From the IMG/VR virus record IMGVR_UViG_3300044960_000439: a stretch of DNA of 64,000 bases; one strand, 5' to 3'. Both the position numbers and the translations under genes were made by a program. Origin of the DNA: a virus. Below are positions 8,513 to 48,858 of the stretch, in pieces. Below the pieces are notes generated by a model. The model was not told the DNA's origin. It was given only the letters and a program-made list of their open reading frames with translations, and did not search any database. Each line of letters begins with the position of its first letter. Positions within the stretch are counted from its first letter, which is position 1.

Positions 8513-9661
8513 ATGGTCAAATCTAAACTAGAGATTGATACCAATCACGTTATCGTAGCTCATATGCTTGCTCGTGTCCCTTGTGTCCTCTGGGGACCTC
8601 CAGGAATTGGCAAGACGTCACGTGTGATGCAAATCGCTAAGACTGTTAACAGGAAATTTCATTCTATTACTTTGCCTATTTATCAGCCTGAAGACATCTG
8701 TGGTTATGTCAGACCTGATGATAACAGAAGAGTCACAGTAAAATATCCAATGGATGACTTTGCTTCTCTTGGCGAAGACTCTATACTCCTTCTAGACGAA
8801 TTTGGTTCTGTTTCAGAAGAAATGCAAGCTGCTTGCTGTCAGCTTCTTCTTGAGCATAGAGCTGGTAATCTATACTTACCACCCTCTATGTACGTTATGG
8901 GTGCTGGTAATGATATGGATTCTGCTATCAATGCCTATGAACTAGGAGCCCCTCTAGCAAACAGAATTTCTCATATAAAATTCACGACGCCCACTGTACA
9001 AGAAATGCGTACCTGGGCATCTACCGATGATTACAAAGTGGATCTTCCATCTATTAATTACAAAGAGTTCAAAGTTACTCTACCTTCTCCTTGGCGGCTT
9101 ACTGTAATAACGTTCTTGGAGTCTAGACCAGACTTGCAGTATGCTTTGCCAGAGAATAGAAGCCAAAGAAGCGGTCCTTGGCCTTCACCAAGGTCTTGGA
9201 TGGCTGCTGCAGATGTGTGGCAAGCTTTATCTTATATATATGGTTTCCATTCTTTTAATTATGATGAAGGTATAGCTACTCTAGCTTATCATGCTGCTCT
9301 ACCTAATGTAGGTGCTGGAGCTGCTACTGAATTCTTCTCTTGGGTAAAGACTATGGATATTCCCAAGATTGCAGATATTTTAGAAGGTAAAGTAAAATGG
9401 ACTCCTTCCAGGTTAGATCAGGCTTATGCTGCTGGTACTGCAATTCTATCAGTGCTACTAAGCACTATTAGCAAATCAGGTAAGCCTAATAAGGAAACCA
9501 AAGAGCTAGTAGAAGCAGCTTGGAATGTTCTCTTGTCTTGGTACAAGGGGAATATGAAACCAGTTGTATATTCATTATCCATTACTATGTTAAATAGGGA
9601 GGAACTTAAACGATTTAATGTTCCAATGGAAATAGTTGATCTCTTGGAGATGTCCTCTTAG
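8513..9661 (+). CDS. MoxR-like / AAA_5-type AAA+ ATPase (module 1)
   Basis: Walker A GPPGIGKT, Walker B LLLDEF, GAGN, LANRISH, PSPRSW. Confidence 0.88.
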   Translation: MVKSKLEIDTNHVIVAHMLARVPCVLWGPPGIGKTSRVMQIAKTVNRKFHSITLPIYQPEDICGYVRPDDNRRVTVKYPMDDFASLGEDSILLLDEFGSVSEEMQAACCQLLLEHRAGNLYLPPSMYVMGAGNDMDSAINAYELGAPLANRISHIKFTTPTVQEMRTWASTDDYKVDLPSINYKEFKVTLPSPWRLTVITFLESRPDLQYALPENRSQRSGPWPSPRSWMAAADVWQALSYIYGFHSFNYDEGIATLAYHAALPNVGAGAATEFFSWVKTMDIPKIADILEGKVKWTPSRLDQAYAAGTAILSVLLSTISKSGKPNKETKELVEAAWNVLLSWYKGNMKPVVYSLSITMLNREELKRFNVPMEIVDLLEMSS

Positions 9662-10994
9662 GAGTATTATTGTGGATAGGTCCTGGATAAATGTAACTTT
9701 ATCTTCTTTACTATCAGACCCCAGTATTGCTTACTTTGCTAGACCTATTCTTAAGTTTGAATACAAGCCTGATGAAACTGTTGTATATACTAAGCCAGCT
9801 AAGGATTTTATAATTCTGTATAACAAAAAATATAATGAGAAATATACTTCAGATTGCAAAGAGGTTGGGTATCTTAAATCCTCTATATTAGTTAGCGTAT
9901 TAAATTATGTATTGAATTATGTAATTAGAAGACAACATAGAGATAAGAAACTCTGGAAAATATGTGTTACTTTTGAAATAAATGAAATTTTGAGATATCT
10001 CAGAGTTGCAGGATTAGTCCTTCCACCGGAAGCTCTTCTTCCTAGTAACTTTGGTCTTCCACCCAATTTATTAGCTGAGCAGTATTACGACTTGTTAACT
10101 AATAAAAAGTCCAATAGCAATTCTAGTGGCTCGGATGAAGAAGGGGGATTCGGTTTTGATAGTAATGATGATGTAAATGATGAGAAAGCAAACGATAAAT
10201 CTGATAAAAGTGGTATATTGAAGAAAATACAAAGTAAAGTAGATAATAACAATAATTTTACTTCATCATACACCGACGAGATCTTTGACGAAGATTCTTC
10301 TTCTGAAAATATTGATACAAAAGCTTTATCTGCCCTATTTGCTAGCTCTCTAGCTCAAGCAATTAATTCTGGGCAACTTCCTGGCAATATGCCATTAGGA
10401 TTGAAAAGATTTGTAGATGCCATATTTAAGCCTGAAATAAATTGGAGACAGCAAGTTCTTGGCTTTATTAAACATATTCATGCCAAGACATTAGCTTCCA
10501 AACGTAGAACCTACTCTAGAGTAGCAAGACAAGAAATTCCTGGAATTATCCTTCCAGGAAGAATTGCTGATCAGACACGATTTGGTTTCTTATTTGATGT
10601 GTCTGGTAGCATGTCTGATGCTCAAGTATCTAAGTCTCTATCTGAGATGCTTGGATGCTTAAGGCAAATAAGAGCAGAAGCTTTAGTTTGGTCTTGCGAC
10701 ACGGACCTTCATTATATTAAGAAACTTAAATCGTCAGAGGCTAGTAAAGTTGTTAAAGAAGGTATAAAATTTATTGGTAGTGGTGGCACAGATATTGTTG
10801 ATTGCTTAGAGAAGTTATATACTGATCCTAAAGTAGATGCAAAAGAAATAAGTGCTTTTATTGTATTCACTGACGGCTATACTCATTGGCCTACTACAGA
10901 ACCTGTATGGTGGAGTAAATATCCAACCATAGTAGTACTTCTAGCTAATCACAAGATACCCAAGTGGGTGAGAAGTATTATGGTAAAAGAATGA
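9636..10994 (+). CDS. VWA-domain protein with DUF2201-like N-terminus (module 1)
   Basis: MIDAS FDVSGSM, GSGGTD, FTDG; INWRQ..L; acidic/Ser linker; adjacent to the AAA gene. Confidence 0.85.
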   Translation: MISWRCPLRSIIVDRSWINVTLSSLLSDPSIAYFARPILKFEYKPDETVVYTKPAKDFIILYNKKYNEKYTSDCKEVGYLKSSILVSVLNYVLNYVIRRQHRDKKLWKICVTFEINEILRYLRVAGLVLPPEALLPSNFGLPPNLLAEQYYDLLTNKKSNSNSSGSDEEGGFGFDSNDDVNDEKANDKSDKSGILKKIQSKVDNNNNFTSSYTDEIFDEDSSSENIDTKALSALFASSLAQAINSGQLPGNMPLGLKRFVDAIFKPEINWRQQVLGFIKHIHAKTLASKRRTYSRVARQEIPGIILPGRIADQTRFGFLFDVSGSMSDAQVSKSLSEMLGCLRQIRAEALVWSCDTDLHYIKKLKSSEASKVVKEGIKFIGSGGTDIVDCLEKLYTDPKVDAKEISAFIVFTDGYTHWPTTEPVWWSKYPTIVVLLANHKIPKWVRSIMVKE

Positions 10995-10998
10995 CTAT

Positions 10999-11044
10999 AC
11001 TGCTACTAGGTCTTAGGATCTAGTAGCAGTTTTTTTAGCTCAAA
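10999..11044 (+). terminator. Terminator hairpin with TTTTTTTAGCTCAAA tail
   Basis: ACTGCTACTAG/CTAGTAGCAGT 11-bp stem then TTTTTTAGCT. Confidence 0.75.
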
Positions 11045-11053
11045 AGTGATAAC

Positions 11054-11524
11054 ATGAAGCGCATCGTAACAAAAGTTAAGGATTTATTAAGACGTAAACC
11101 ACGTAAACATAAACTTGTCATAGACAAATTAGACATAGAAGGTTTAACCATAAAATGTCTGCGTTGTGGTCTTACTATAAGTACTAATGCTATTACATTA
11201 TCTAGGAAGATTCATCCTTTCTCTTGTGCACAGTTCTTTGAACATATAGGTTCCGTTTTAGATCAACCTTGTAAATCAAAGCCTATTACATACTTACAAA
11301 GGGTCCTGAGTTTCTCTTATTACATGTTGAGATTATACTTGATAGATAGATCTCTATTAAGCCAGTCTGAAATAAATAAAAGATTCAGCATTTGCTCCGC
11401 TTGCGCCTTCCATAATAAATTAGAAGGTAGATGTGGAGTTTGTGGTTGTAGAGTTAATTCTAAGAAGCATCCTCTAAACAAATTAGCCCATAAAACTACG
11501 TCATGTCCAAAAGGTTTTTGGTAA
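11054..11524 (+). CDS. Cys-rich Zn-binding protein (DUF6171-like C-terminus)
   Basis: RFSICSACAF..EGRCGVCGC..NKLAHKTTSCPKGFW; N-terminal CLRC. Confidence 0.65.
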   Translation: MKRIVTKVKDLLRRKPRKHKLVIDKLDIEGLTIKCLRCGLTISTNAITLSRKIHPFSCAQFFEHIGSVLDQPCKSKPITYLQRVLSFSYYMLRLYLIDRSLLSQSEINKRFSICSACAFHNKLEGRCGVCGCRVNSKKHPLNKLAHKTTSCPKGFW

Positions 11525-11533
11525 TAAACTCTT

Positions 11534-26859: not shown

Positions 26860-27993
26860 ATGTTCGTGAAGTGGGCTAATATCTATAGAGATATTCTGTT
26901 TCAATCTGATTACTTTGAAGATCTAATAGAAGCTAAATATGTAAAAGAAATAAAGCATCCTGAATTACCATTAGTATTGTTAGATTATACAAATGAAGCA
27001 CAGTTTTCTAGAAACTGGGATCCTAGACTAAGAATTGCCAGAGGCTTAATTCTAGAAATTAACAGTAAGAATCCTGCTGAAGTAATAAAAATAGTAGCCA
27101 ATCCATTTCCCCGTTTTGCTAATCTCGGTGAGATAAAAGAAACAGAAGTAAATAATCTACCTGATAACTTGTTCATTTCTAATAAGTTAGATGGTTCTTT
27201 AGTTATATGTTGGTATTACAACTATAAGTGGTATTTCTCTACTCGTGGTTCTTTTAAATCTAAACAATCTTTAGATGCATGTCTCTGGTTTAATGAACAT
27301 TTTTCTACTAATAAATTAGATCCTAGCTATACATACCTCTTTGAGTGGATTTCTCCTGACAATAGAATAGTAGTAAATTATGGAGATAGAAAAGAATTAG
27401 TTCTGTTAGCTGTCAGAAAGACAGAATTTGGTGAAGAAATCCATCCATCAGAATTAAAATATTTTGCCAAAGATATTGGGGTTAACTATATTGAATTTAA
27501 TAAATTTAAGTTTGGATTAGATAAGATAGAATTTGGAGAACCTACTAAAGATGAAGGTAGAGTTCTCTATTCACATAGTCCATATCTTAGAGTCAAAGTA
27601 AAATCTCCAGAATATGTAAAGTTACATAAAGATATTACCAATCTCTGCCTTAATAATAGTAAGTGGACTATATTTGACTTAGTTAAGAACAATACCTTAC
27701 ATGAAACTATAAGGTTCTTACCTCAAGAATATAAAGATATGGTTTTAGAAAGAGCCACTGAACTATTAGATTTGTATAATTCTATAATTTCTGAAGCCAA
27801 ATTATTATTGGAAAGGACTAAGCATCTAACGAGTCGCAAAGAAAAAGCGTTGTTAGTTAATGAAATAGCACCTAAAATAAGCGGGGTATTCTTCTCTCTA
27901 TTAGAGAATAGAGAAGAGGAAGCTAAAGTACGTGCTTGGAGAATAGTTGCTAAATATTTAGAAGAGAAAGAGCCTGTATCTGTTCAACAGTAA
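26860..27993 (+). CDS. T4 Rnl1-family RNA ligase
   Basis: ARGLIL, PFPRFANLGE, motif I KLDGSL, STRGSF, FEWISPDNRIVV, EGRV, VKVKSPEY. Confidence 0.9.
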   Translation: MFVKWANIYRDILFQSDYFEDLIEAKYVKEIKHPELPLVLLDYTNEAQFSRNWDPRLRIARGLILEINSKNPAEVIKIVANPFPRFANLGEIKETEVNNLPDNLFISNKLDGSLVICWYYNYKWYFSTRGSFKSKQSLDACLWFNEHFSTNKLDPSYTYLFEWISPDNRIVVNYGDRKELVLLAVRKTEFGEEIHPSELKYFAKDIGVNYIEFNKFKFGLDKIEFGEPTKDEGRVLYSHSPYLRVKVKSPEYVKLHKDITNLCLNNSKWTIFDLVKNNTLHETIRFLPQEYKDMVLERATELLDLYNSIISEAKLLLERTKHLTSRKEKALLVNEIAPKISGVFFSLLENREEEAKVRAWRIVAKYLEEKEPVSVQQ

Positions 27994-29307: not shown

Positions 29308-29321
29308 GTCAATGATAGTAA

Positions 29322-32300
29322 ATGGCAGATTACCTACTCATCGGAGACGGTCTTGGAAGACTATATCTCGAATCCGATGATCCAACAAGTCCTTCTTTTC
29401 TGCTGCTAGACGTTGTTGGTGTATCTGCCTCAGATTCTACCACTACCACACCAGGGGATTATAGCTTTACCTGGCCAGACAGAGCACCTTACATCATAGT
29501 AAGATGTACTGGCGCAGGGGCTGGTTGCGTTAGAGTTTTTGATAATTCCGTTAATAACTATTTACTCGTTAGAGGTGGTGGGGGTGGTGGTTATTCTAGA
29601 GTTAAACTAACTAGACCAATAGAAAAAGATGTAGAGAAATTTCATGTAGGAAATAAAGGACTTGCAGAATCTAGTTCTAATACTGAATCTCAAGGAGAGG
29701 CATCCTGGTTTGGTAGATATAACAATAGCATTAAAATAATAGGGAATGGTGCTTATAGAGATCAAGGAGGAACAGGAGCTTGTACTTCTGTATCAGATGG
29801 TTCTACTATCTTAAGCTATTTTCTTGCTACCGGAGGTAATGGATGTACTGCAGATTATACTTACGATCCGAGCCTTGGGTTAATAATAAATAAATGTGGA
29901 TGCCCTGGTCATCCCGGATCAGATTCAGGTGATGGAGCTGATGGTAATTGCGGGTACAACGATGTCAATAACCCTTGCGATGGAATCCCTCAGGATCCTG
30001 GTTCTGGAGGTGCCCGTTGTAGTTCCTTTAATGATGGAAAAGATGGTTCAGTAAGGATAATAGTAGAGGCACCAGGTAGCGTTGGGATTAAATTTACAGT
30101 ACAACCTACTGATACACCAGTAAATATAGTAATAGCTCCTCCTATAGAAGTATCTTCTTATTTTATTAACTACAATGTATTAGGAGGCAGTGAATCTCAA
30201 GTAACTATTAGCAAAGATTCAAGTTCTCCGGGAGGTACGTTATCTGGTACTCTAACTAAAAATGTTGTAGAAGATCATTTATTTGTTTTTGACGATATCA
30301 AGATAAATCAAGCTGGTACTGGGTATAAGCTTGTAGCTACTTCATACCCAAATAATTATCAGGATACCAGTAGCTCTTTTGATATATTTGTTAATTTAGT
30401 CAACTTAAACTCATCTTTCTTTAATACTCCTGACTACTCTCCTTCCATAGTAAATGCGATTGGATCTAACTTATCAGTTTTCACTGGGACTAGAACTAGT
30501 GAAAGTCGTAGTTCAGTATTGCCTAATTTAAAGACTGAAGACAGTACAGCAGGAACCAAGGCTTCTTCTGTAGAATTTAAAAATAATATCTATACTTCTA
30601 TTTCTTATTCAGAATCTACCCTAGCTTCTCTAAAAACTAATAACTACTTTAATTTAAATGACATTTGTACTGACACTGTTTCTTCTATAGTTAGCCCTAA
30701 AGTATCGCTAAGAACAGTAGATAGTACTACTAATCCTGTCTCATCTTTAGCAACAGCAAATAATTTACTATCTACAACTGATATCTCTGTTGAGTATCAG
30801 AATAATACTCTAACTACTTCTTCTCTATTAACTTCTACGGAAGTATCTACTAGATATTATGCTAATACTTTAGCTGCTTCTTCTTTCTTAACATGTAGTT
30901 ATTTTACAGCTAATTATGATGTAACTATTCCAGCAGCTAAATTATATTTACTTACTCAAGATAATAGTATTCATTACCACGGAGGAGAAGCTACTACACA
31001 AGTATTTATACAGGCTTTTTGGGATGACTTCTCACAGAATTTTATCAAATCAAATCTAGATAATAAATTAAGCCTGAACTTACCTGAAGACTCTATATAT
31101 AGAAGTACATATAAATTAGCTTTCATAAGTAATATAGATATAGATTCCCAAGTTAATAGTTTTGAATCTGCTTTCCTTGGGTCAAAAACAACTACGAGCA
31201 GTAATGAAATAAATAATTACTTTGATTCGAATTCGTTGGGATTCAAATCCACTTTTGAATTAAAGCTATATAATGCCGATTATCATCAAGCGCTACTTTC
31301 TGCTAGATCTGCAATAAATAGTTATACACTTAATTATGAATATGGTTCTGCTTTCTTAAGTCTCTTTCTAGAGACAGCTTCTGATATTAGAGATAATAGT
31401 GCTTTCTATGAAGCTGCTACACTAACAAATAAATTATATCTAAATACAATTACAGTCGAAACGGAATCAGATAGTTTACTTCTGGGAGGAAAATTATATC
31501 TATCTGTACAAGATAGTATTTCTACTTATAGTCAGCATATTCCATCTGTAATCAATTATATCTATGTAAATGATTATCAAATTGAATATTCAAGTCTTTT
31601 TTCTGTTATAACTTTATTATTAGAAACTAACTTTCTAAACAAAGACTTCTCTACAAATCTTGTTTCTTTCTATTCAGTAATTAATTCTATACATAGAGTA
31701 TCTCAATATATAAAATCTGCTATCTCTTCTTCACTTATCCTTAATACAAATGAAAATAGTCCCAGATTTGCTAGTAGCAAACTAATAATATTAGCTACTG
31801 CTTTCTTAAATGACTCAGTTACTATCTCTGATAGTTTCCATTCTGGTATTTACCTTCTTTGTATATCTTCATTTGTTAATGAGACTAGTGAAAGAAATAA
31901 TGGTTATTTATCTCAATCTATATCTAGCTCTTACCAAGAAGCCACAGACTTAGCTTCTGCTTTATCTATAAGTTTATCTACTGAAGCGGCATCTGTAGAT
32001 AGTTTCTCTACAGGCTATCTAGCTAGCCAATTATCTTTCAAAACATACTTAACGTCTGAAGATACTGATATCAGTACTGAGACGAATAAATTATCTACAT
32101 TATCTTATATTAATCTCATTTTAGTTAATACTGAATCTTCACTGCACTTCTTATTAATACAAGGAGAATTAATAACATGGTCTACAGATCATCAGACAAA
32201 TTATGAATCATCAACTTTAGATAATATCATGTCTCTATTCACAGAAGAGACTCAAACTACTGCAGAACTTCCTGATGCAGTAGTAGCTCTTTCACTGAAT

Positions 32301-38557: not shown

Positions 38558-39649
38558 ATGGACCTAGTTCTACAAACGGCTGTGGAAATTCTCCGCTACA
38601 ATCAACTACTTGCGGAGATGGATTCTTCTAAAGGGAAGGTTCCGTTTCTTTGGCCGTGTTTTATTGGTGAGACTGGAACTGGCAAGACGGCCCGAGCCGA
38701 ACAATTGAGCAAAATCTTTAATATGCCACATCATAGTCTCTTATTGCAGACTATGGATCCAATTGAAATTGGCGGGGCTCCCCGAGCTAGGGGAGGTAAG
38801 CTTGTGTGGCATTTGGATTCCTGGACTGAGAAGCAAGGAATTATCTTCTTAGATGAATTGGATAAACCAGACAAAGATCATTACAGTGCTGTCCTTAGTA
38901 TGCTGACGGACAGAAGGATCCGTCATGTTAAATTGGAGAATGCACTATTTGTAGCGGCTATGCAACCAGTAGAAAGAGAGTTGTTCTTGTCTCACAAAAC
39001 GAGGCAAGCTCTCTCCGCTAGGTTGGTGTTCTTACCGGTGAATGAAGTAGATTCTTTCAATTATGTGTGCAATAAGCACTACAGAATTCCCATTAAATTG
39101 CAGGCTAGTGAATACGACCTCCCTGTTCTGGATAAGATTAGTCCGCGACAACTTGACTGGCTTCTGGGTTTCTATGATTACATGACTCCCAGTCCAGAAG
39201 TATTAAATCTAGTTGTTCGTGGAGTTGTTCATAGTAAACACGTTAAGACCATAATGAAATTGCTAGAAGCTAAGACTACAGGGCATGCACTTGAATTAGG
39301 TCCCATGCTTAGGGTTCTAGCAAAGAATCCGTCTCTAGTTGATAAAGCTGATTTTGCCACTATTTCTATGGTATTCACTAGGGGCGTTACTGAACCAGGG
39401 TGGACGCCTGAAGTTCTTGAAAAGATTATGCGTAGGGTATTGACGGAAGTAGAAATCCCTCAAATCCATGAAACGTTGAAACAAATGCTCACGACTATTG
39501 TGGATAGCAAAGCTGATGTTAATGAAGCAAGAAATATGTTTGAACCATTAACTTTTGAGCAGTGGACCGAGGTAATGAACAAAGTTGTTAACAGCTCTGT
39601 TGATTTCTACATGGAAAAGTATGGAGATAAAATAAATGAGAAGAAATGA
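38558..39649 (+). CDS. MoxR-like / AAA_5-type AAA+ ATPase (module 2)
   Basis: AAGGAGG SD before ATG 38558; Walker A GETGTGKT; Walker B IFLDEL; FVAAMQP; ALSARL; SPRQLDWL. Confidence 0.88.
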   Translation: MDLVLQTAVEILRYNQLLAEMDSSKGKVPFLWPCFIGETGTGKTARAEQLSKIFNMPHHSLLLQTMDPIEIGGAPRARGGKLVWHLDSWTEKQGIIFLDELDKPDKDHYSAVLSMLTDRRIRHVKLENALFVAAMQPVERELFLSHKTRQALSARLVFLPVNEVDSFNYVCNKHYRIPIKLQASEYDLPVLDKISPRQLDWLLGFYDYMTPSPEVLNLVVRGVVHSKHVKTIMKLLEAKTTGHALELGPMLRVLAKNPSLVDKADFATISMVFTRGVTEPGWTPEVLEKIMRRVLTEVEIPQIHETLKQMLTTIVDSKADVNEARNMFEPLTFEQWTEVMNKVVNSSVDFYMEKYGDKINEKK

Positions 39650-40874
39650 GATAGGACATCTAGGAAATATTTTGCCAACTGAGGTTTGTGATTGGTTGAC
39701 TGAAAATGTTGATATAACTGCTTCAATCGGAGATCACAACGTTAGTTTATCTCTGACTGAAGAAGGGCATGTAATGAATATTGATCCAATATTTTTTAAT
39801 AATCTTACAGATGATGCCAAAAAGACTGTCCTCTTACAAGCAATTATGCATATTGTAAGAGGAGATTGTATCAACATGAGGCAAGTTGATTATCCAGAGA
39901 TCTGGAATATTGCGTCTGAAATTGTAATTAATGAACAGATTGGTGATTTAGGTCCTGCTCAAATTCAGACTGGCAGGCAATTTCTCACGTATCAGGATAT
40001 CAGGCAAGAGAAATGGCCAGAGTATACTCCACCTACAGGGTGGATTTATAACAAGTTAATTAGAGATTTGAAGAAGAAATTTGGTGAAAGCTCTTCCCTT
40101 GAGGAAGGATTACAACCACTTCCATCCGATATAAACGAGGATGATAATAAGGAGAATCTTACTAATTCTCACCTTCCAATTGACTACATGACTTATGCTA
40201 CTAAAGAAGGCAATTACCTTTATGTAAGAGTTAATCCTGCAGAAGGTGATTTGGATAAGTGCAAGGAAGCCTATGCTTCTACCTTTCTACAGGCCCCTAG
40301 TAGCTTTCTTGGTGGACATGATCTTCCAGATTACGATAGAAATCTGGAATATAAGCCAACACCTGAACCGAAAGTATTACGAGTTTTAGAATGCATTCTT
40401 TCTCAAATAACTAGTTATCAAGGTGATACTAAAGTAACTAATAAAACGTGGTTTAAAGAACACAGATCAAGTAGATATTCTAAAGGGACTCGTAGACTAC
40501 GGAGACTTACAATAGAAGTTGGTGTAGACGTTTCTGGTAGCATGGCAGAACATCTACTGAGGGTAATTGGAATAGCAGAATGGCTCAAGCAAACGCATGA
40601 CGTTACTGTAATTGCTTGGGCTGATAGAGCTGCAAAAGTAGATAATTCCAATTACAGTAAAGTATCAGTAGGAGGCGGTACAAATCCAACCTCCGTATTG
40701 AAAATGATTAAGAAAGATAACCCTGATGTTGCAGTCATTATGACTGATGGTTATTTCTGTGAAGCTGCCGAGCCGATTCCCACTTGCCCTGTAATTTGGA
40801 TTCTAGTAAATAACGCAACAGAAAGTGATATATTTAAGAGACCAATTGATCAGGTAGTTAAATTGACAGATTAG
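39636..40874 (+). CDS. DUF2201-like + VWA protein (module 2)
   Basis: WNIASEIVIN, MIDAS VDVSGSM, GGGTN, MTDG; HExxH replaced by QAIMH. Confidence 0.85.
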   Translation: MRRNEIGHLGNILPTEVCDWLTENVDITASIGDHNVSLSLTEEGHVMNIDPIFFNNLTDDAKKTVLLQAIMHIVRGDCINMRQVDYPEIWNIASEIVINEQIGDLGPAQIQTGRQFLTYQDIRQEKWPEYTPPTGWIYNKLIRDLKKKFGESSSLEEGLQPLPSDINEDDNKENLTNSHLPIDYMTYATKEGNYLYVRVNPAEGDLDKCKEAYASTFLQAPSSFLGGHDLPDYDRNLEYKPTPEPKVLRVLECILSQITSYQGDTKVTNKTWFKEHRSSRYSKGTRRLRRLTIEVGVDVSGSMAEHLLRVIGIAEWLKQTHDVTVIAWADRAAKVDNSNYSKVSVGGGTNPTSVLKMIKKDNPDVAVIMTDGYFCEAAEPIPTCPVIWILVNNATESDIFKRPIDQVVKLTD

Positions 40875-40884
40875 TATCAACAAG

Positions 40885-40906
40885 CCGCATATCTTCGGAT
40901 ATGCGG
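40885..40906 (+). other. Perfect 9-bp cUUCGg tetraloop hairpin 4 nt upstream of tRNA-Val
   Basis: CCGCATATC-TTCG-GATATGCGG. Confidence 0.7.
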
Positions 40907-40910: not shown

Positions 40911-40984
40911 GGGCCAGTAGCTCAGCCGGTCAGAGTACCTGCCTTACACGCAGGGGGTCGCAGGTTCGAGTCCTGCCTGGCCCA
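40911..40984 (+). tRNA. tRNA-Val(UAC)
   Basis: Acceptor GGGCCAG/CTGGCCC; anticodon arm CCTGC-CTTACAC-GCAGG; T loop GGTTCGAGTCC; CCA not encoded. Confidence 0.95.
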
Positions 40985-41024
40985 CTCGATGTTTAAAATG
41001 AAATCCTCAACGTTAGAGTTAAAG

Positions 41025-41276
41025 ATGATAATAAAGGTAAATAGCCTTACTCATAACTTAATGATTTGTTATGCTAGTTCTGATGAACCAATAGCTGCTT
41101 TAATCTTTTACGACAAAGAAGAAACTTCAATCCGTTTATTCGGTAAAACGACTAAACTTAATGAAGGAATAGCTGTTTATTTAAACCAGGAAAACACTAT
41201 CTGTAATGTTCGTTCTGACGCGATTAAAAGACTAGAGATAGGAAGTGTCAGAAATGAACTTATGTTAATAAGATAA
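41025..41276 (+). CDS. Small hypothetical protein (small-paralogue family)
   Basis: In frame with listed 40989; LFGKTTKL.EGI.V shared with 41395..41658. Confidence 0.65.
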   Translation: MIIKVNSLTHNLMICYASSDEPIAALIFYDKEETSIRLFGKTTKLNEGIAVYLNQENTICNVRSDAIKRLEIGSVRNELMLIR

Positions 41277-41394
41277 AGAAAAAGCTAAAATCCAATAAAT
41301 ATGGGTCTACATATCTGAGGAGGTGAAGGCTTTGATTTCGAGTTCTATCTAGTCTACTAGATATTTAAATTGAAATCCTCAACTGGAGAAATAA

Positions 41395-41658
41395 ATGCAA
41401 GTAAAGTTAATCATACATGACCCTAACGTATTCGGTTTTCGTACTGCTTTTAATACATCAATAGCTTATTTAAACTACAAGCTTGCAGATAGAACCACAA
41501 CTAGTCTATTTGGCAAAACAACTAAACTTAGTGAAGGGATAACTGTTTAGTTAAATCAGGAAAAGGTTAAACGTAGTTTGAATTATGATATAACCAGAAT
41601 AGTAGAGATAGAAAGTTTTAAAGACAGACTTACGTTAATAAGACAAAGAAAAAGCTAA
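41395..41658 (+). pseudogene. Paralogue of 41025..41276 with an in-frame amber stop
   Basis: MQVKLII..SLFGKTTKLSEGITV*LNQEK..; TAG at 41548 aligns with TAT (Tyr) in the sister gene. Confidence 0.7.
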
Positions 41659-41728
41659 TTCTAGTAATAGACAGGCAAGTATTCTAAGCAGAGATAAGGT
41701 AAAAATGTAAACTAAACGCATAATTTGC

Positions 41729-41746
41729 GGAATAAATATCTGGGAG
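41729..41746 (+). promoter_or_regulatory. Phage promoter-like motif GGAATAAATATCTGGGAG
   Basis: Preceded by AATTTGC exactly like the 4581 copy; ends 9 nt before the orphan CRISPR repeat. Confidence 0.6.
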
Positions 41747-41755
41747 TCCTTTCGC

Positions 41756-41791
41756 GTTGCAATGCCTGCGAAGAGGCTTGGTTTCTTCGAC
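41756..41791 (+). CRISPR. Orphan CRISPR repeat (36 nt) GTTGCAATGCCTGCGAAGAGGCTTGGTTTCTTCGAC
   Basis: The last 33 nt match repeat 45505..45537 except for 2 positions; 3' stem CGAAGA/TCTTCG followed by AC. Confidence 0.8.
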
Positions 41792-41840
41792 ATTTGTAAG
41801 GACTTTTGGTAGCTACATTTTAATCCCGGGAGGAAAAGCT

Positions 41841-42551
41841 ATGAGGTACCTATCTCTCCTTATTGGCCTGCTTTCTATTTGTATTACCATTACTTCTCAA
41901 GCACAAAATCTCAAAACACTTAATGACCCAAATGTTGAAGTAAGGATTTTGTGTGATGGTGTACAAATTACTAATACGAGTCCTGCAGAAGTCAGTGTAT
42001 TTGATTGGACTGTAGTAATTGGACAGAGAACTGATGATCATTATCCTCAGCCGTTGTGTTGTGCTTATATTTTAGATGGTAAATACGATCCAGTTATCAC
42101 TTACACTTCATTTGGAACTCCAAAGCAAGGTCTTCGCGAGAACGTTAGAGGCGGTGGTTTCTATTTTCATTGCACAATCCCACCACGTAATTCTGTCGTA
42201 CTAAGGGCTCTAGTACTTGGTTTCGGTAATGCTCACGCTATTACAAATATTCCGAAAAACGCAGTTTATAAACGAGTTAATAGAAATCTTGGTAGAAAAC
42301 ATGCTTTTGGAATCTATGCTTGCATGTCTACAATTCAAACTGCAATAGATAAGGGAGTCACTAAAGAAGAAGATTTGAAATCGACCAAAGAGATTGGTAT
42401 CCTGCTATTAGCTTTTTACGAAGAAAAATTTCCAGAATATGCGAGAATACGAGCTGTCATTTCAGAAGACTTTTATAAACAGCTAAGAGATCATTTCAGT
42501 GATATGCAACGCACAGGAGAACAACTATATAAAACAGTCTTTTGCGAGTAA
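41841..42551 (+). CDS. Exported hypothetical protein
   Basis: GGGAGG SD before ATG 41841; signal peptide MRYLSLLIGLLSICITITSQA; the listed TTG start 41757 lies inside the CRISPR repeat. Confidence 0.75.
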   Translation: MRYLSLLIGLLSICITITSQAQNLKTLNDPNVEVRILCDGVQITNTSPAEVSVFDWTVVIGQRTDDHYPQPLCCAYILDGKYDPVITYTSFGTPKQGLRENVRGGGFYFHCTIPPRNSVVLRALVLGFGNAHAITNIPKNAVYKRVNRNLGRKHAFGIYACMSTIQTAIDKGVTKEEDLKSTKEIGILLLAFYEEKFPEYARIRAVISEDFYKQLRDHFSDMQRTGEQLYKTVFCE

Positions 42552-42663
42552 TTAACTCTAATAAGATTTGCAAGATTAACAAGTCCAAGGCGAATTTGGA
42601 CGGTCAATTATCCTTCCACAGTTGCAAAAATATAGTCTATGACACTGTCGTGTACCACAAACG

Positions 42664-42775
42664 CCGGTGGTAATGTTGAGCTACCGGAAACGCTATGGGC
42701 GGGCGGTCCGCCCATGTAATCACCAGCCAGAGTGCTGGCGGCGAGCCGGCTTGGCCGAGACGACCGGAGGAGTGT
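42664..42775 (+). other. GC-rich multi-hairpin leader
   Basis: CCGGTGG/CTACCGG, ATGGGCGG/CCGCCCAT and CCAGC/GCTGG stems before the GGAGG SD of 42780. Confidence 0.45.
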
Positions 42776-42779
42776 TGCT

Positions 42780-43544
42780 ATGTCTGCTATTGTTAAGGTT
42801 ACCGTTCAGCGTACCAAGGATTGGGTGCGCGCACGGCGATTGGAAACCGGGGAAAACGTCCCGGAAACAATCGAAGTTGAGGTCCTAGCAGATCAGTTAC
42901 CTCGCGAAGTCCGGGAGCTACTGATCGAAGCCGGGGGCGGATCATACCCCGACGAATTCGCTGGCGATATCCGGCAGGACTACCTATGGATGTATCGGTC
43001 CGACTTGCGGTACGGGCGTGTACCGATCATCGTAGATGCCGACCAACCGACGCCGGAGTCAATAGCCGCGGCGATTCTGACTGCCGACAAGGAACGGCGT
43101 CGGATGAAGATGGAAGTTGAGGAAAAGATTCGTCAGCGTGAAGAACGAGAGCGTGCACTTGCCGAAGAATGGGCGCGGCTGCCCCTGGAGCAGCGGGCCA
43201 GTGCGGCTGGCGTGTGCGTTGCCCGCGACCCCGAGACGGGTACCATGAGCGCCTATGGGGTGCAATTGTACGATATCTCGGCGCTGAAGAAGTACGTACC
43301 AGAGGCGTTGGACGAGGCGGTCCTGGAGGTGGAACGCCTTCGCGAAATCGAGCGTGGCAGAGAGGCGATCAAGCATCGCGCTCTGCTGGCTGAATTACTC
43401 GGCTTAGTACCAGAAGACGCGCTGCGGCATGCCGTTAAACGTGCCGCCATTGATGGTATCGCCGGGAAACCGGCGTCAATTGAAGAAGTGCGGAAACAAG
43501 TCCATCAAGCCTGCCAGGCTGGCGGCGTCCGCATAAGTATTTAA
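42780..43544 (+). CDS. GC-rich hypothetical protein with coiled-coil
   Basis: GGAGG SD before ATG 42780, in frame with listed 42732; codon style distinct from the AT-rich backbone. Confidence 0.75.
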   Translation: MSAIVKVTVQRTKDWVRARRLETGENVPETIEVEVLADQLPREVRELLIEAGGGSYPDEFAGDIRQDYLWMYRSDLRYGRVPIIVDADQPTPESIAAAILTADKERRRMKMEVEEKIRQREERERALAEEWARLPLEQRASAAGVCVARDPETGTMSAYGVQLYDISALKKYVPEALDEAVLEVERLREIERGREAIKHRALLAELLGLVPEDALRHAVKRAAIDGIAGKPASIEEVRKQVHQACQAGGVRISI

Positions 43545-43564
43545 CAAACGTTGCGTTTATTACA

Positions 43565-43596
43565 GGCGGCCGGTGTGTACTCAAGCACCGGCCGCC
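43565..43596 (+). other. Perfect 11-bp hairpin between 42780..43544 and the Cas12m-like gene
   Basis: GGCGGCCGGTG-tgtactcaag-CACCGGCCGCC; no U tract. Confidence 0.6.
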
Positions 43597-43717
43597 GTTG
43601 TATCGGAAATCAGCGCTTCCTACTTCGCCCTGCAGTAAGAGATGCTCTAACGAATGTTGTCTATTCTAGTGGAACTGAGGGTTCTTTATCTCTAGGAATG
43701 GGAATAGGAGGACTATC

Positions 43718-45379
43718 ACGCCATTCGGCAGAATAGCCGGCCCAACTATTGTCTATAAATATGGGGCGAAAAAACCAACTACAAACGCAGAAGCGATTTT
43801 GGACCAGTTGCGCAAAGCACATCAGTACCGCAACAAGCTTGTCGAAATAGAGCTTCAACGACGCAAACTCGTCGAAGAAGCTGTCAAGAATATCGAAAGT
43901 GATGTCCGCCATTTGACGGACAAGTTAGAACAGCTTGAACTGGACATTGACTATACGGTTAGAAAAATCAGCAACCACAAACAGAAGAATCAGACTCGAA
44001 CTATCCCTGTCGAATTGAAAGAACGTCTCAAATCATTGAAAACTCAGTACAGAGAAGCGCTGCGGCGTATGAAAAAGGCCAAGAAAGCCGCGTACGCTCG
44101 TCCAGAAACGCAGGAGGCATTGAATCGAATTGAAGGAAAAGTGAGGGCTGAACACAAAAAAGCCCGTAATTTGTGTGGGCTCTATTGGGGTACTTACTGC
44201 CACGTAGAGCAGATCATCCCATGTATCAGAAAAGGACCGCCGCCGAAATTCCGCCGTTTCGACGGCAGCGGTGTATTAGCGGTCCAGCTTCAAAAGGGAG
44301 AAAACATTGCACGGTTGGAGAGCGGCGAAGACCGTCGCATCCGCATTGAGGGCTGCGGCAAGCGACGCATATTATGGCTGCGCATCGGATCGGACGAGAA
44401 CCGCGATCCGATCTGGGCGACGATTCCATTTACTTATCATCGTGAAATTCCAAGCGATGCGAAAATCAAGTGGGTGAAAGTCAAAGCCCAACGCATTGCA
44501 TGCCAAACTGAGTGGGAGGTGCTCTTTACGCTGGAACGGAGTTCCGGCTGGAAAAAGCCCGACCTAGCTCAGGATGGAGCAGTTGCCATCGACATCGGTT
44601 GGCGCAATTTCGATGATCGCATTCGCGTAGCATACTGGATTGGTAGTGACGGACGCGAAGGCGAAATTGCACTGCCCCATAACATGGTTGGCAAGGCGCT
44701 TGAACAAGTTGAGCATTTACGATCATTGCGAGACAAGAATTTTAACGAGATTAAGCAGCAACTGCTTGACGCTATCGGTGCGCTCCAGATTCCGGAGTGG
44801 CTAAAGGAGGTTACGAAAACGCTGCATCAGTGGCGTAGTCAAGGAAGACTGGCGGCGCTGGCCATTCGATGGCGGCAACAGCGATTCGATGGTGACAATG
44901 ATATATTTGCTCTACTAGAAACGTGGCGGGTCCGCGACAAGCACCTTTACGAATGGGAGGCACATCTCCGCGTGAAGGCTATTCGTTGCCGCAACGATTA
45001 TTTTGCCAACGTCGTAGCCGATTTGTCTCGTCGTTACAAGACAGCGGTTGTTGAGGATTTTGACTTGCGGAACGTTACACAGGTCGATCCGATACAAACG
45101 GAACAAATTGGCGATGGACGTCAGCTCTATCGTGCACACATCGCCGCGGCCGGTGGCTTACGGCAGATGATTAAGAATCGCTTTGCCGAAACGCAGATCG
45201 TGTCTGCCGTGCTCACAACGCAGACCTGCACGGAGTGCGGCGAAATCATGAACTTCGACGCGGCCGAGAGCGTATTTAGCAAATGTTCACATTGTGGCCA
45301 TGCGTTTGATCAAGACCGCGCAGCGGCGATTAACCTGATGCGACGATACGAGGAAAGGCTAGTTGCTGCGAACAGCTAG
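43718..45379 (+). CDS. cas12m: Type V-U1/V-M (Cas12m-like) TnpB-derived RuvC effector, ~553 aa, apparent ACG start
   Basis: IVYKYGAKKP..LDQLRKAHQYRNKLVEIE, LYWGTY, KFRRFDGSGVLAVQLQ, PIWATIPF..HREIP, RuvC-I VAIDIGWR, QWRS.GRLAAL..RW, RuvC-II VVEDFDLR, Zn finger CTECG..CSHCG, RuvC-III FDQDRAAAINL; CRISPR repeats downstream. Frame is open from 43679; the listed TTG 43799 cuts off conserved residues. Confidence 0.85.
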   Translation, partial: TPFGRIAGPTIVYKYGAKKPTTNAEAILDQLRKAHQYRNKLVEIELQRRKLVEEAVKNIESDVRHLTDKLEQLELDIDYTVRKISNHKQKNQTRTIPVELKERLKSLKTQYREALRRMKKAKKAAYARPETQEALNRIEGKVRAEHKKARNLCGLYWGTYCHVEQIIPCIRKGPPPKFRRFDGSGVLAVQLQKGENIARLESGEDRRIRIEGCGKRRILWLRIGSDENRDPIWATIPFTYHREIPSDAKIKWVKVKAQRIACQTEWEVLFTLERSSGWKKPDLAQDGAVAIDIGWRNFDDRIRVAYWIGSDGREGEIALPHNMVGKALEQVEHLRSLRDKNFNEIKQQLLDAIGALQIPEWLKEVTKTLHQWRSQGRLAALAIRWRQQRFDGDNDIFALLETWRVRDKHLYEWEAHLRVKAIRCRNDYFANVVADLSRRYKTAVVEDFDLRNVTQVDPIQTEQIGDGRQLYRAHIAAAGGLRQMIKNRFAETQIVSAVLTTQTCTECGEIMNFDAAESVFSKCSHCGHAFDQDRAAAINLMRRYEERLVAANS

Positions 45380-45501
45380 GTACGATAATATAGATATTAA
45401 TCGCTCGTAATATACAAGTTGAAACAACGTAATAGATGTCACAACGACTGCTACCAAAAAGAGGTCCAACATGTTATAAAGAACATAGTTAGATGAACGC
45501 T
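45380..45501 (+). promoter_or_regulatory. Probable CRISPR leader
   Basis: AT-rich non-coding 122 nt between effector stop and first repeat; contains ATGTT/AACAT inverted repeat. Confidence 0.5.
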
Positions 45502-45598
45502 CGTGCAATGCCTGCGAAGAGGCTTTATTTCTTCGACAGTGAAATGGATGATCAGAAGGGAACGTGTAATGCCTACGGAGAGGCTTCATTTCTTCGAC
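45502..45598 (+). CRISPR. CRISPR mini-array: two 36-nt repeats and one 25-nt spacer
   Basis: R1 45502-45537 CGTGCAATGCCTGCGAAGAGGCTTTATTTCTTCGAC; spacer AGTGAAATGGATGATCAGAAGGGAA; R2 45563-45598 CGTGTAATGCCTACGGAGAGGCTTCATTTCTTCGAC (4 mismatches to R1). Confidence 0.85.
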
Positions 45599-45719: not shown

Positions 45720-46466
45720 ATGACGAAGGTACGAAACATTGCTCTGTTCATTTTGATTTTCTCTCTTGGATTCGTAGGTTGTAAGTCTAAGGACGTTGTA
45801 GGACAGAAATATATTGATCCCTATGACATGGCTATTGATTATGTATACGAAGATGGAATTCTTAAAATTATCAATAATTCAAACAAACCTGTAGAGCTTG
45901 CTACACCAACGGTGTTTTTGGGATTCCCCTCTAAAGAGGGTGAAAATATGTTTTTCCTCCTTCTTAAGGAGGGAACGCACTCATTGACCCTTTATGATTT
46001 TGGTGGCGAGGACTACGTTGAGGATATTTATCCTTCAAACGATAATTCCAAAGTTAAAGAGATCTTGGTTGTTGACTTGAAGCCCAAGGAAGTTAGGGAA
46101 TATCCCGTAATTGCCGTTGCTATTCCTACCGAGGGATTTAGTTATCTGGTTGGAGACGGTACTTATGCTGTCCTTCCAGTAATCGGACACCACGAAAAGC
46201 GTTGGATCACCTTTATTGCTCTGTCATTCCTGGCAGAAGTATTGGATAAAGACAACTCTGATCTATACAAGAAAGCATTGGCTCTTGCTTTGCGATTCAT
46301 TTGGGTAGGACCAAATGATGACACTGAATTGAAAAGTATTGAAAAAGACTTGTTGCAAGAAGGCTGGTCAGAAGATGTTATCTCAGTTGCCTTTTCTGTC
46401 TTTGGAATGGCAAGGGAGAAAGCCAGGAAACATTTGAAGGATATTACGAAGATTAAAAGAATCTGA
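45720..46466 (+). CDS. Predicted lipoprotein
   Basis: AGGAGG SD; signal peptide with lipobox GFVG-C. Confidence 0.75.
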   Translation: MTKVRNIALFILIFSLGFVGCKSKDVVGQKYIDPYDMAIDYVYEDGILKIINNSNKPVELATPTVFLGFPSKEGENMFFLLLKEGTHSLTLYDFGGEDYVEDIYPSNDNSKVKEILVVDLKPKEVREYPVIAVAIPTEGFSYLVGDGTYAVLPVIGHHEKRWITFIALSFLAEVLDKDNSDLYKKALALALRFIWVGPNDDTELKSIEKDLLQEGWSEDVISVAFSVFGMAREKARKHLKDITKIKRI

Positions 46467-46497
46467 AGGATTCATACCCCCCCCCAAGGAGCAAAAT

Positions 46498-47592
46498 ATG
46501 AATAATGACATTACTATCAAGGCGGCGAAATCTATTCTTGAGTACAATATCATTCTTGGGTGTCAAGATCAGGAAGACAAACAAGGTTATATTTGGCCAT
46601 GTTTCATTGGACCGACTGGCAGCGGGAAGACTGCCAGGGCTGAGAAGTTGGCCAAGGAGTTGGGTTTGAAGCAGCACAAATTGCTGCTTCAGACGATGAA
46701 TCCAGAAGAAGTTGGTGGGATTCCTCGTCCCGTTGGTGACAACCTTCATTGGTTCCTTGATTCTTGGGCTGAAGATAATAGCTGTATTATCTTGGATGAG
46801 CTTGATAAGCCGGATCGTGAGCACTGGTCCACGATCCTTTCTTTGTTGACTGACCGTAAATTGCGTCATAAGCAACTAAATAGTACTGTCTTTGTGGCTG
46901 CTATGCAGCCTGTCGATGTTGAAATGTTCTTGTATGAAGAAACTGGCAGGGCACTCAGTGCCCGGCTTTGTTTTCTTCCCATTAATGAGAATGACTCATT
47001 TGAATTCGTTAGTAAGAAACATGGAAGGAAAAACTTGTTCCATCATGTTGGAGAAATTAAACTTCCAGTTTTGGAAGACGTGAAGGCCCGGCAATTGGAT
47101 TGGCTCGCTGGCTTTGTGGATTCTATGAATCCGGAAGCCTCGGTCTTGAATTTGGTGGTGAATGGGATCGTTCACCACAGGCATAGGGCCAAAGTCTTTG
47201 AATGGCTTGAAGCCAGGTTGGTTACTGAACTTGAGCCTGAAAGATTACTCAAGATTCTCGGCAGGAAGCCTGAATTGCATGATGAACTGGATATTGCTAC
47301 TGTCAATTTGCTCTGGCAGAATGCCAGTACTCTCTACGGTTGGACTGAAGAGATTTTAGAGAAGGTTTTGACCAGGATTTCTTGTGAAGTTGAACGCGAG
47401 CAGGCGTTCAATGTAATGAGAAATATGGTTGATAATTTGAAAAAGTATCCGGAAGATCAGGATGGCTATAAACCATTTGTTGAACCATTGACTTATGAAC
47501 AATGGTGTCGAGTTGTGGATAAAGTTTCCAACAATATTGTAAAGTACTTTACCGCAAAGGAGAATAAAAATGGACAATCTAAACAAGGATAG
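46498..47592 (+). CDS. MoxR-like / AAA_5-type AAA+ ATPase (module 3)
   Basis: GPTGSGKT, IILDELDKP, FVAAMQP, ALSARL; close paralogue of module 2. Confidence 0.88.
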   Translation: MNNDITIKAAKSILEYNIILGCQDQEDKQGYIWPCFIGPTGSGKTARAEKLAKELGLKQHKLLLQTMNPEEVGGIPRPVGDNLHWFLDSWAEDNSCIILDELDKPDREHWSTILSLLTDRKLRHKQLNSTVFVAAMQPVDVEMFLYEETGRALSARLCFLPINENDSFEFVSKKHGRKNLFHHVGEIKLPVLEDVKARQLDWLAGFVDSMNPEASVLNLVVNGIVHHRHRAKVFEWLEARLVTELEPERLLKILGRKPELHDELDIATVNLLWQNASTLYGWTEEILEKVLTRISCEVEREQAFNVMRNMVDNLKKYPEDQDGYKPFVEPLTYEQWCRVVDKVSNNIVKYFTAKENKNGQSKQG

Positions 47593-48766
47593 TCCATATT
47601 ATTACTATAATTTGTTTCCTGTTGAACTCAGTGATTGGATGAAGAAATATATTAATATTCAATGGAATAACGATTTGCCATCGGCAGCTGTAAAGCTGTC
47701 GGCTGATAAAGGTTATATCATTGAATTAAACAAAGAGTTTATGGGGAAGCTCTCTGACAATTGTAAGAAGAAAGTAATTCTGCATGAAATTAGTCACGTC
47801 ATTCGTGGCGATTGTCTGACGATAAAAAAGTGTGAGCGTCCCCTTGATTACAACATAGCCAGTGATGCTCACATCAACACCCAAATTGGTGATCTGACTG
47901 AATTAGAGGAGGAGGCTGGTACTAAAGTTGTTACTTACGAAAGGATTCGTGAAGAAGATTGGCCGGAAGGGATGCCTTCCACTAAAGTAATTTATGACCT
48001 CCTTAATAAGAAGAGGAAACAGCAATCTTCTAAGGGGAAGGAAAGTTCTTCTGAAGAAGGAGGTGACGACAATAATTGTGGTACTGATAAAAAGTTCATT
48101 CTTTCAGGTGACGTTAAAGGTACTGAAGGTGATTTTGAGATTTGCATTGATAAACATACAGAAGCAATAGCAACTGTTCCTAAAGCATTAGGTGCGGGTA
48201 TTAATATCAGATTTGATAATTTTGATAGTAAAGTTTATGAAGTGCGACCGAAGCCAGAACCCAAAATATTGACGGCTTTGAAGAAATTGCTTCGCTATGT
48301 AGTACCAAAATATGGTACTACGAAAGTGAAGGTAAAGACTTGGACGAGGGAAAATCGCTCTAATGATTTGTTTCGTGGTTACATGCGTAAACGTAAGGTG
48401 AAAGTATGCCTTGCTGTTGATGTTAGTGGCAGCATGCGTGAGTATGTCCCAAACATACTCGGCATTGCTGCTGATATGAAGCATAAATTAGATACGGAGA
48501 TTATTGTTTGGGCAGACTATGCCCAGAAAATTCGTGGTGTTGATGATAAATGGGATGTTGGCTGGGGAACCGACGTAAACCCAGCAATTGAATTGATTAA
48601 CAAAATTAATCCTGATATTTCTGTAATTGTTACTGACGGTGATTTTTATCGTAATATTGAGAAAATACCAAAGACACCAGTGCTTTGGGTGCTTTATGGT
48701 GATTTCAGTTGCTCACACAAATTGGTTAAGAAGGCGGTGGATCAAATCATCAAAATTTCAGCATAA
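47570..48766 (+). CDS. DUF2201-like metallopeptidase + VWA protein (module 3)
   Basis: Intact ILHEISH (HExxH), YNIASDAHIN, MIDAS VDVSGSM, GWGTD, VTDG. Confidence 0.87.
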   Translation: MDNLNKDSPYYYYNLFPVELSDWMKKYINIQWNNDLPSAAVKLSADKGYIIELNKEFMGKLSDNCKKKVILHEISHVIRGDCLTIKKCERPLDYNIASDAHINTQIGDLTELEEEAGTKVVTYERIREEDWPEGMPSTKVIYDLLNKKRKQQSSKGKESSSEEGGDDNNCGTDKKFILSGDVKGTEGDFEICIDKHTEAIATVPKALGAGINIRFDNFDSKVYEVRPKPEPKILTALKKLLRYVVPKYGTTKVKVKTWTRENRSNDLFRGYMRKRKVKVCLAVDVSGSMREYVPNILGIAADMKHKLDTEIIVWADYAQKIRGVDDKWDVGWGTDVNPAIELINKINPDISVIVTDGDFYRNIEKIPKTPVLWVLYGDFSCSHKLVKKAVDQIIKISA

Positions 48767-48785
48767 TTTGTTTTAAATATTGAGT

Positions 48786-48858
48786 GGGGCTGTAGCTCAA
48801 AGGATAGAGCAAGGGATTTCTAATCCCTAGGTTGCAGGTTCGAGTCCTGCCAGCCCTA
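48786..48858 (+). tRNA. tRNA-Arg(UCU)
   Basis: Acceptor GGGGCTG/CAGCCCT; anticodon arm AGGGA-TTTCTAA-TCCCT; GGTTCGAGTCC. Confidence 0.95.

Follow-up and report, generated by a model that had tools for sequence, protein, structure and literature searches.

Why should a phage encode three pairs of a MoxR-like AAA+ ATPase gene and one VWA (von Willebrand factor A) gene, and what would such pairs do? The question is raised by IMG/VR virus record IMGVR_UViG_3300044960_000439, of which a stretch of 64,000 nucleotides (nt), here called the window, was analysed. We designate the pairs modules 1, 2 and 3 (M1, M2 and M3); each consists of an AAA+ ATPase gene (ATPase1 to ATPase3) and a gene for a partner protein (VWA1 to VWA3) with a zincin-like DUF2201_N head and a DUF2201 VWA domain. 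An earlier sequence-only reading of this DNA had seen in them a stepwise loss of a zinc-peptidase motif and the duplication of a whole AAA-VWA-tRNA-small gene unit. Our results point elsewhere. We put at roughly 65% the probability that these are three separate working remodelling pairs of the N4 gp24/gp25 type, which come from two deep lineages, serve a client per module and do not have proteolysis as their core activity.

The three pairs and their family

A profile search of the window in all six frames found exactly three ATPase and three VWA genes; degenerate remnants of a module were absent. These counts cover the window, and the source contig runs on to at least 77.7 kb. The three pairs that had been reported, each with Walker A/B and a metal-ion-dependent adhesion site (MIDAS), were thus confirmed and are the sole copies in the window. 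In every pair the two genes are adjacent and co-oriented, on the + strand, and the ATPase gene comes first. ATPase1 (8513-9661, 382 aa) is followed after a 10-nt gap by VWA1 (9672-10994, 440 aa); ATPase2 (38558-39649, 363 aa) overlaps VWA2 (39636-40874, 412 aa) by 14 nt, and ATPase3 (46498-47592, 364 aa) overlaps VWA3 (47570-48766, 398 aa) by 23 nt. We assigned the VWA1 start to the GTG at 9672, not to the TTG at 9636, since it is preceded by an AGGAG site and agrees with the start of the orthologue P0003. The start of ATPase2 at the ATG at 38558, already chosen earlier, was upheld by an AAGGAGG site upstream, and the leaders of M2 and M3 both carry a C-run plus AAGGAG.

All three ATPases scored above the curated cut-off of Pfam AAA_5, and all three partners above the gathering score of both DUF2201_N and DUF2201. 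The phage family phrog_1297 matched the ATPases (E = 7e-46, 5e-13 and 3e-12 for M1, M2 and M3, respectively), and phrog_1314 matched the partners over nearly their full length (E = 4e-40, 7e-31 and 2e-30). ATPase1 is a canonical phrog_1297/AAA_5 MoxR-like protein, with Walker A/B, the sensor-1 Asn and an LANR motif; the ATPases of M2 and M3 aligned only with the first ~115 positions of phrog_1297, the N-terminal AAA core, and have a different C-terminal half. The Pfam profile of MoxR proper, AAA_3 (PF07726), gave 16.6 bits with ATPase1, below its cut-off of 27, and no match in ATPase2 or ATPase3. The nearest database relatives of a profile of the three ATPases carry PF07726, and several of them are named MoxR family ATPase.

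When annotated phages were searched with tblastn, the LUZ7 genes of the same pair proved to be annotated as N4 gp24-like and N4 gp25-like, and the best match of VWA1 was Thermus phage phiFa. The linked ATPase/VWA pair is also present in phiFa, in a Moorella phage and in a Vibrio jumbo phage, and the family counts 8,182 representatives at E ≤ 0.001 in a 50%-clustered library. The window pairs are best described, judging by their sequences, as phage MoxR-like/metallopeptidase-vWA couples of the N4 gp24/gp25 type (PHROG 1297 plus 1314). In N4-like phages (Schitoviridae), gp24/gp25 have the same two families, order, orientation and linkage, and the same DUF2201_N plus DUF2201 partner. The window differs from them: it has three modules, whereas we found one match to the query per phage record, and two of its three modules have lost the HExxH motif, which is kept by 92% of the relatives. 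What is unusual here is the number of copies; the phage system itself is a known one, not one of a new kind.

An AlphaFold2 model of VWA3, with a mean predicted local distance difference test score (pLDDT) of 87, begins with an N-terminal sheet-plus-helices domain, continues with a linker that is acidic and disordered, and ends in a VWA fold. The HExxH motif lies on a helix spanning residues 63-79, and D99 on a helix spanning residues 91-106. The VWA part of the model matched CMG2, Ro60, NorD and the MIDAS domain of MDN1, with Z scores up to 12.5. For the ATPase3 model, Foldseek ranked MCM, NorQ (from the NorQ-NorD complex), FtsH and Lon highest, and their E-values were similar. By sequence, midasin was the best solved-structure match of the ATPase, while the VWA profile found nothing significant among the sequences of solved structures. 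A side observation concerns the linker: a G-S-x-E-E-G motif, at residues ~150-180 of VWA3, is invariant in all three window VWA proteins and sits in the disordered acidic/Ser-rich stretch that joins the zincin-like head to the VWA domain, a stretch otherwise unconserved in the family.

Motifs, descent and selection

Walker A (GxxGxGKT), Walker B (LDE) and two arginines were invariant in an alignment of 81 ATPases that includes the three of the window. The MIDAS (DxSxS...T...D) was well kept among 98 VWA sequences: D284, S286, S288 and D356 were present in 98/98 and T334 in 97/98, and each of the three window proteins has all five residues. The zinc site has fared differently. In VWA3 numbering it consists of H72, E73 and H76 plus the conserved D99, and it is intact in VWA3. 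The same positions read Q, A, H and E in VWA2, where the third-ligand Asp is replaced by Glu, and V, S, N and T in VWA1, where all three zinc-site positions are lost. The earlier observation that HExxH is intact in module 3 alone, reads LQAIMH in module 2 and is unrecognisable in module 1 therefore holds (HEISH, QAIMH and VSVLN, respectively). We took HExxH with an Asp ~23 residues on as the signature of a zincin. Among the window partners this combination occurs in VWA3 alone, which remains a putative peptidase; VWA1 and VWA2 lack it and are not classed as peptidases.

Loss of this motif is not peculiar to the window. HExxH was present in 177 of 193 relatives surveyed; the 16 exceptions are scattered, and 8 of them keep both histidines but not the Glu. 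Even among close relatives of VWA3 the site is polymorphic: P0001, one of two 91%-identical VWA3 orthologues and a cluster of 11 sequences, reads HVISH and has thus lost the catalytic Glu. A different position sets the ATPases of M2 and M3 apart. The sensor-1 motif AAxN was found in 77 of the 81 ATPases, ATPase1 among them; the M2 and M3 ATPases and their orthologues are the only four with AAMQP in its place and with ALSARLxF instead of PLANRFxH. ATPase2, a member of this divergent lineage, keeps Walker A/B and both conserved arginines.

We then compared the modules with each other. Over their full length, the ATPases of M2 and M3 are 46% identical and their VWA proteins 32%. ATPase1 and ATPase3 share 29% identity over 135 residues, and BLASTP gave no significant match between VWA1 and the VWA proteins of M2 and M3; hhalign, in contrast, recovered full-length homology between VWA1 and the M2/M3 clade (97.6% probability, 347 columns). 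In an IQ-TREE phylogeny of 53 VWA rows, a branch with support 100 splits two groups. VWA2 and VWA3 group together (SH-aLRT 93) inside a 16-row clade, and VWA1 falls inside a clade of 14 rows (support 99) on the side of phiFa, LUZ7, the Vibrio phage and the Moorella phage. Forcing the three window VWA lineages into a single clade was 92 log-likelihood units worse and was rejected (approximately unbiased (AU) test, p-AU 0.0014).

The ATPase tree separates the same modules. ATPase2 and ATPase3 form a clade (support 100) on a very long branch together with the ATPase of G001, a 50.5-kb IMG/VR genome with an estimated completeness of 98%, whereas ATPase1 groups with P0208, a protein that shares 51% identity with it over the full length and keeps all motifs; the branches of this tree are too long to place the two ATPase lineages relative to each other. 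P0208, the closest non-self relative of ATPase1, was deposited as a protein of a Nitrososphaerota archaeon metagenome-assembled genome (MAG), on an 8.9-kb contig; either this contig is viral and was binned with an archaeal MAG, or it gives a clue to the host.

G001 has a single module, an orthologue of M3. The ATPase of this module shares 65% identity with ATPase3 and 47% with ATPase2, and its VWA protein, in which HEVSH is intact, shares 48% with VWA3 and 35% with VWA2. Rooted on outgroups, the VWA tree reads (VWA2,(G001,VWA3)) with 99/96 support, and the ATPase path lengths are congruent with it. Consequently, the duplication that gave M2 and M3 predates the split from G001; the M2 lineage was either lost from G001 or never reached it. 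M1 and M2/M3 thus belong to two deep lineages of the family, with M2 and M3 as old paralogues.

Stepwise loss is not borne out by these data: VWA1 lies in the other deep branch, a single clade is rejected, and P0001 has the sequence HVISH. Since VWA1 and VWA2/VWA3 are in different deep branches, the motif losses in M1 and M2 were independent; the peptidase site has been lost repeatedly while the MIDAS was always kept, and the modules therefore form no stepwise series. The sequence-only reading had itself named separate acquisition of the modules as a finding that would overturn it. The phylogeny bears this out in part, as regards M1 versus M2/M3; M2 and M3 are paralogues.

Are the modules without HExxH decaying? 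We compared the window with L002, a 9.9-kb metagenome contig that is ~91% identical to it. The dN/dS ratio (nonsynonymous over synonymous substitution rates) was 0.023 for ATPase2, 0.027 for VWA2 and 0.083 for ATPase3, so that M2, a module without HExxH, is more constrained than M3. QAIMH is identical between VWA2 and its L002 counterpart. M2 is thus under strong purifying selection and is not decaying. An orthologue of VWA1, P0003, is 92% identical and has the same degraded zinc site and an intact MIDAS. As for the expanded, sub-functionalised toolkit proposed earlier, the three intact pairs and the purifying selection on M2 support the expansion; that they are sub-functionalised working copies is plausible.

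Further relatives were sought in several collections. In IMG/VR, searches with ATPase3, ATPase1, P0060, P0048 and P0208 as queries yielded no confirmed close relative, scans of genome collections with P0048 and P0208 returned a single match, a 28-residue P-loop stretch in a Clostridiaceae MAG, and the phage collection contained no megablast match to 12 kb of window sequence.

tRNAs, small genes and the interval between modules 2 and 3

The window has the look of part of a large phage: nearly all genes are on the + strand, GC content is ~0.35 with a few high-GC islands, and four tRNA genes are dispersed along it. As had been noted, a tRNA directly follows M2 and M3. The gene for tRNA-Val(TAC) (40911-40985) starts 37 nt past the VWA2 stop, a position kept in L002, with a 9-bp hairpin with a TTCG loop (40885-40906) in between, and that for tRNA-Arg(TCT) (48785-48859) starts 19 nt past the VWA3 stop. 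The two are 66% identical, which is the background among the five tRNAs compared, and they are therefore not copies of one unit. The most similar pair (78%) was tRNA-Arg and the tRNA-Met of G001, the sole tRNA of that genome, which lies ~500 nt downstream of its module. All four window tRNAs read A-ending codons that the phage favours (GTA 0.42, ATA 0.34, AGA 0.54 and AAA 0.63); codon supply thus suffices to explain them. Alongside these four tRNAs, the window also encodes a T4 Rnl1-type RNA ligase (26860-27993; PF09511, E = 9e-18), which suggests tRNA repair against host anticodon nucleases.

Small paralogous genes had been described after both modules. They do follow M3, as a seven-member array of ~85-aa genes at 49185-51437; after M2 there is, past tRNA-Val, a single small gene (40989-41276) unrelated both to the array and to the gene after tRNA-Arg. 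Its protein is 35% identical to the counterpart in L002 (2652-2921), while the adjoining VWA2 is 98% identical; either it evolves very rapidly or it is no genuine gene. The claim that an AAA-VWA-tRNA-small gene unit was itself duplicated thus fails: paralogy is demonstrable only for the gene pair, the tRNAs are at background similarity and no relationship links the small genes. The seven array genes, made into a profile, had one match outside the window, a 70-aa open reading frame (ORF) of G001 right after its tRNA-Met (31292-31504; about 11887-12099 in L006), with E = 5e-4 and 14 bits. As G001 shows the same succession of M3, tRNA and small gene, this order is ancestral to the M3 lineage.

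The simplest rule common to these arrangements would put the VWA gene at the end of a transcription unit. M1 ends in an intrinsic terminator (10999-11040), a 14-bp stem followed by TTTTTTAGCT, which closes that unit, and the hairpin and terminator scan also found a GC-rich 8-bp hairpin in the leader 5' of ATPase1 (8453-8475). Sigma-70 promoter-like sites were no more frequent in the window than in shuffled sequence.

M2 and M3 had also been said to bracket a Cas12 cassette. The positions are as described: a 526-aa gene with a Cas12f1-like TNB domain (43799-45379) is flanked by the two modules. Nothing ties it to them, however, since it is absent from the 91%-identical L002, which reads M2, tRNA-Val, a variable stretch, tRNA-Ile, orf248 and the start of M3 and carries in that interval, instead of the Cas12-like gene, an IS605-type TnpB of 390 aa. 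The intervals compared were 3545-4717 and 7247-7378 of L002 and 41300-45540 of the window, and L002 keeps copies of a 33-40-nt repeat. The interval between M2 and M3 is thus a variable insertion hotspot, not a guarded cassette. The window has an IS605-family TnpB of its own (52219-53373; OrfB_IS605 plus a Cas12f1-like TNB domain), in a high-GC island directly after tRNA-Lys (52072-52145), and its flanks match the sequence around a TnpB homologue in L002. Recombination between M2 and M3 was considered as a source of the variable region and rejected, as the paralogues share only 65% nucleotide identity over 345 nt.

The genes adjoining the modules have almost no match in Pfam or PHROG (they are ORFans), and guilt by association gave no pointer to clients. 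In phiFa, the N4-like phages and the Moorella phage, the neighbours of the pair are replication genes.

Remodelling and its alternatives

How might the pairs work? In the mechanism that we favour, this large, mostly ORFan phage would encode three separate working ATPase/VWA couples. M1 is of the common type of the family, in its own terminator-bounded two-gene unit, and M2 and M3 are old paralogues of a divergent sub-lineage, of which M3 is the copy shared with the related 50-kb one-module phage G001. By analogy with NorQ-NorD, RavA-ViaA and ATV p618-p892, an ATPase hexamer would grip its own VWA partner, composed of the zincin-like head, the disordered acidic linker and the C-terminal VWA domain with its MIDAS, and would pull on it by ATP, passing force through the linker, while the MIDAS and the zincin-like head would hold the client to be remodelled, assembled or released. 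The heads of M1 and M2 most likely act as non-cutting binding domains, and the conservation of the modules suggests a different client for each. The tRNAs would be codon-supply genes at the boundaries of transcription units, not parts of the machine. That proteolysis is not the core activity is indicated by the independent loss of the zinc site in M1 and M2 and by the polymorphic Glu among M3 orthologues, set against invariant MIDAS and Walker motifs.

Precedents for such a division of labour exist. NorQ-NorD, RavA-ViaA, CbbQ-CbbO and CobS-CobT likewise consist of an AAA+ hexamer that acts through a dedicated VWA/MIDAS partner; their partners, unlike those of the window, have no zincin-like head, and their clients are metalloenzymes. 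For NorQD, the mechanism described has a finger of the VWA protein in the pore, together with linker remodelling (PMC13036017). In Acidianus two-tailed virus (ATV), the MoxR-type p618 and the VWA-linked p892 are, as in the window, a virus-encoded ATPase and partner, implicated in virion morphogenesis as tail-development chaperones (PMC3893208), a source that serves, for RavA-ViaA too, as a precedent for the mechanism; ATV differs in being an archaeal virus whose proteins have no peptidase-like domain, and is likened here by description, not by sequence. The phage precedent is a MoxR plus metallopeptidase-vWA chaperone-cochaperone pair of group 2.2 jumbo phages, for which a role in virion assembly with proteolytic processing was proposed (Iyer et al. 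2021, PMC7824862). Its domain logic is identical, a MoxR-type ATPase and a vWA protein with an N-terminal metallopeptidase. The proposal requires an active peptidase, whereas M1 and M2 of the window are predicted to be incapable of peptidase activity and the catalytic Glu of the M3 lineage is polymorphic; neighbouring genes in the window lend no support to a virion-assembly role either.

Several points weigh against the mechanism that we favour. The function of N4 gp24/gp25 is given as unknown (PMC2784036). The near-invariant sensor-1 Asn is missing from the M2 and M3 ATPases, as are five further positions of the family, so that it is not assured that they are active ATPases. Confidence in the ATPase3 model is moderate (pLDDT 68), with MCM scoring as well as NorQ, and the fold matches listed for VWA3 cover its VWA domain, not its N-terminal domain. 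Trees with such long branches would fit an ancient duplication or a separate acquisition of M1 and of M2/M3 alike. Finally, the recurrence of the module-tRNA-small gene order in G001 may mean more than a shared unit boundary.

Other explanations of the locus were weighed against the same evidence. The pairs could be conflict devices, for counter-defence or superinfection exclusion, in which the ATPase, with or without proteolysis, disables a protein of the host or of a rival phage that the head has recognised, with three targets in an arms race for three modules. Bacterial vWA-MoxR systems are indeed proposed as conflict systems (PMC7159879), M2 and M3 flank a variable hotspot with TnpB-family elements, and copy number varies (three in the window, one in G001). 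The window also encodes a 356-aa ABC/OLD-type ATPase (59837-60907) that matches the PADLOC candidate PDC-M56A almost end to end (E = 8e-88) and may be a phage-borne defence or exclusion gene. No PADLOC model, however, matched the pairs beyond a generic P-loop, the very low dN/dS of M2 is unlike that of an arms-race sensor, and the pair is conserved beside replication genes, not placed in an accessory island, in N4-like phages, phiFa and the Moorella phage; we regard this explanation as unlikely. A doubtful variant of the mechanism that we favour keeps three client-dedicated AAA+/VWA machines, two of them with recognition heads, but makes M3, its tRNA and the small-protein gene a functional unit, with the fast-diversifying ~85-aa paralogues as clients or decoys. 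It would seem quite improbable that the modules are tied more generally to their downstream genes, with the small paralogous proteins after M3, or the tRNA transcripts, as clients or co-processed products. The G001 tRNA ~500 nt past its module, the array-profile match in the ORF after it and the 78% likeness of that tRNA to tRNA-Arg speak for such a tie; but M1 has neither tRNA nor array and ends in a terminator, M2 has a tRNA and no array member, helicase or polymerase genes come after the pair in other phages, the match in G001 is weak at 14 bits, and codon supply fully explains the tRNAs.

That one AAA-VWA-tRNA-small-gene unit was copied within this genome, with the peptidase motif decaying from M3 through M2 to M1, is very unlikely. 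The three motif states do look graded, tRNAs lie right after M2 and M3, and these two modules are true paralogues with the same C-run plus AAGGAG leader, but such a series is contradicted by the place of VWA1 in the other deep clade and the AU test, by tRNAs that are different isoacceptors no more alike than background, by unrelated small genes, and by a M2/M3 duplication older than the G001 split, so that no recent in-genome copy is involved. We give next to no weight to the idea that M1 and M2 are redundant, decaying pseudo-enzymes and that only M3 works. Neither, it is true, retains the HExxH zinc site or the third-ligand Asp, and G001 gets by on a single module of the M3 type. Nonetheless, their reading frames are intact and preceded by good ribosome-binding sites, the M2 ratios lie below that of M3, QAIMH is unchanged in L002, the 92%-identical orthologue of VWA1 has the same motif state with an intact MIDAS, and even the 51%-identical relative of ATPase1 retains every motif.

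The pairs matter beyond this phage, as the N4 gp24/gp25-type pair is among the most widespread phage gene pairs without a tested function. Three diverged copies amount to a natural experiment, in which one has a protease site and two have none and are yet equally or more constrained. Since the protease-less copies are as constrained as M3 or more so, the conserved activity of the family would be ATP-driven, MIDAS-mediated binding or remodelling and not proteolysis. The window also offers three matched pairs for the study of ATPase-VWA and client specificity.

Two further features of the window lie apart from the modules. Just upstream of a 1638-aa ORF, a 1.3-kb segment (28041-29315) has a GC content of 0.51, against 0.35 for the genome, and contains ORFs of 424 aa on the + strand and 381 aa on the - strand, with no match in Pfam or PHROG. 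At the beginning of the window, two adjacent genes of ~105 aa (162-473 and 476-802) are 60% identical (E = 1e-35), a tandem duplication that opens a run of ~100-120-aa genes.

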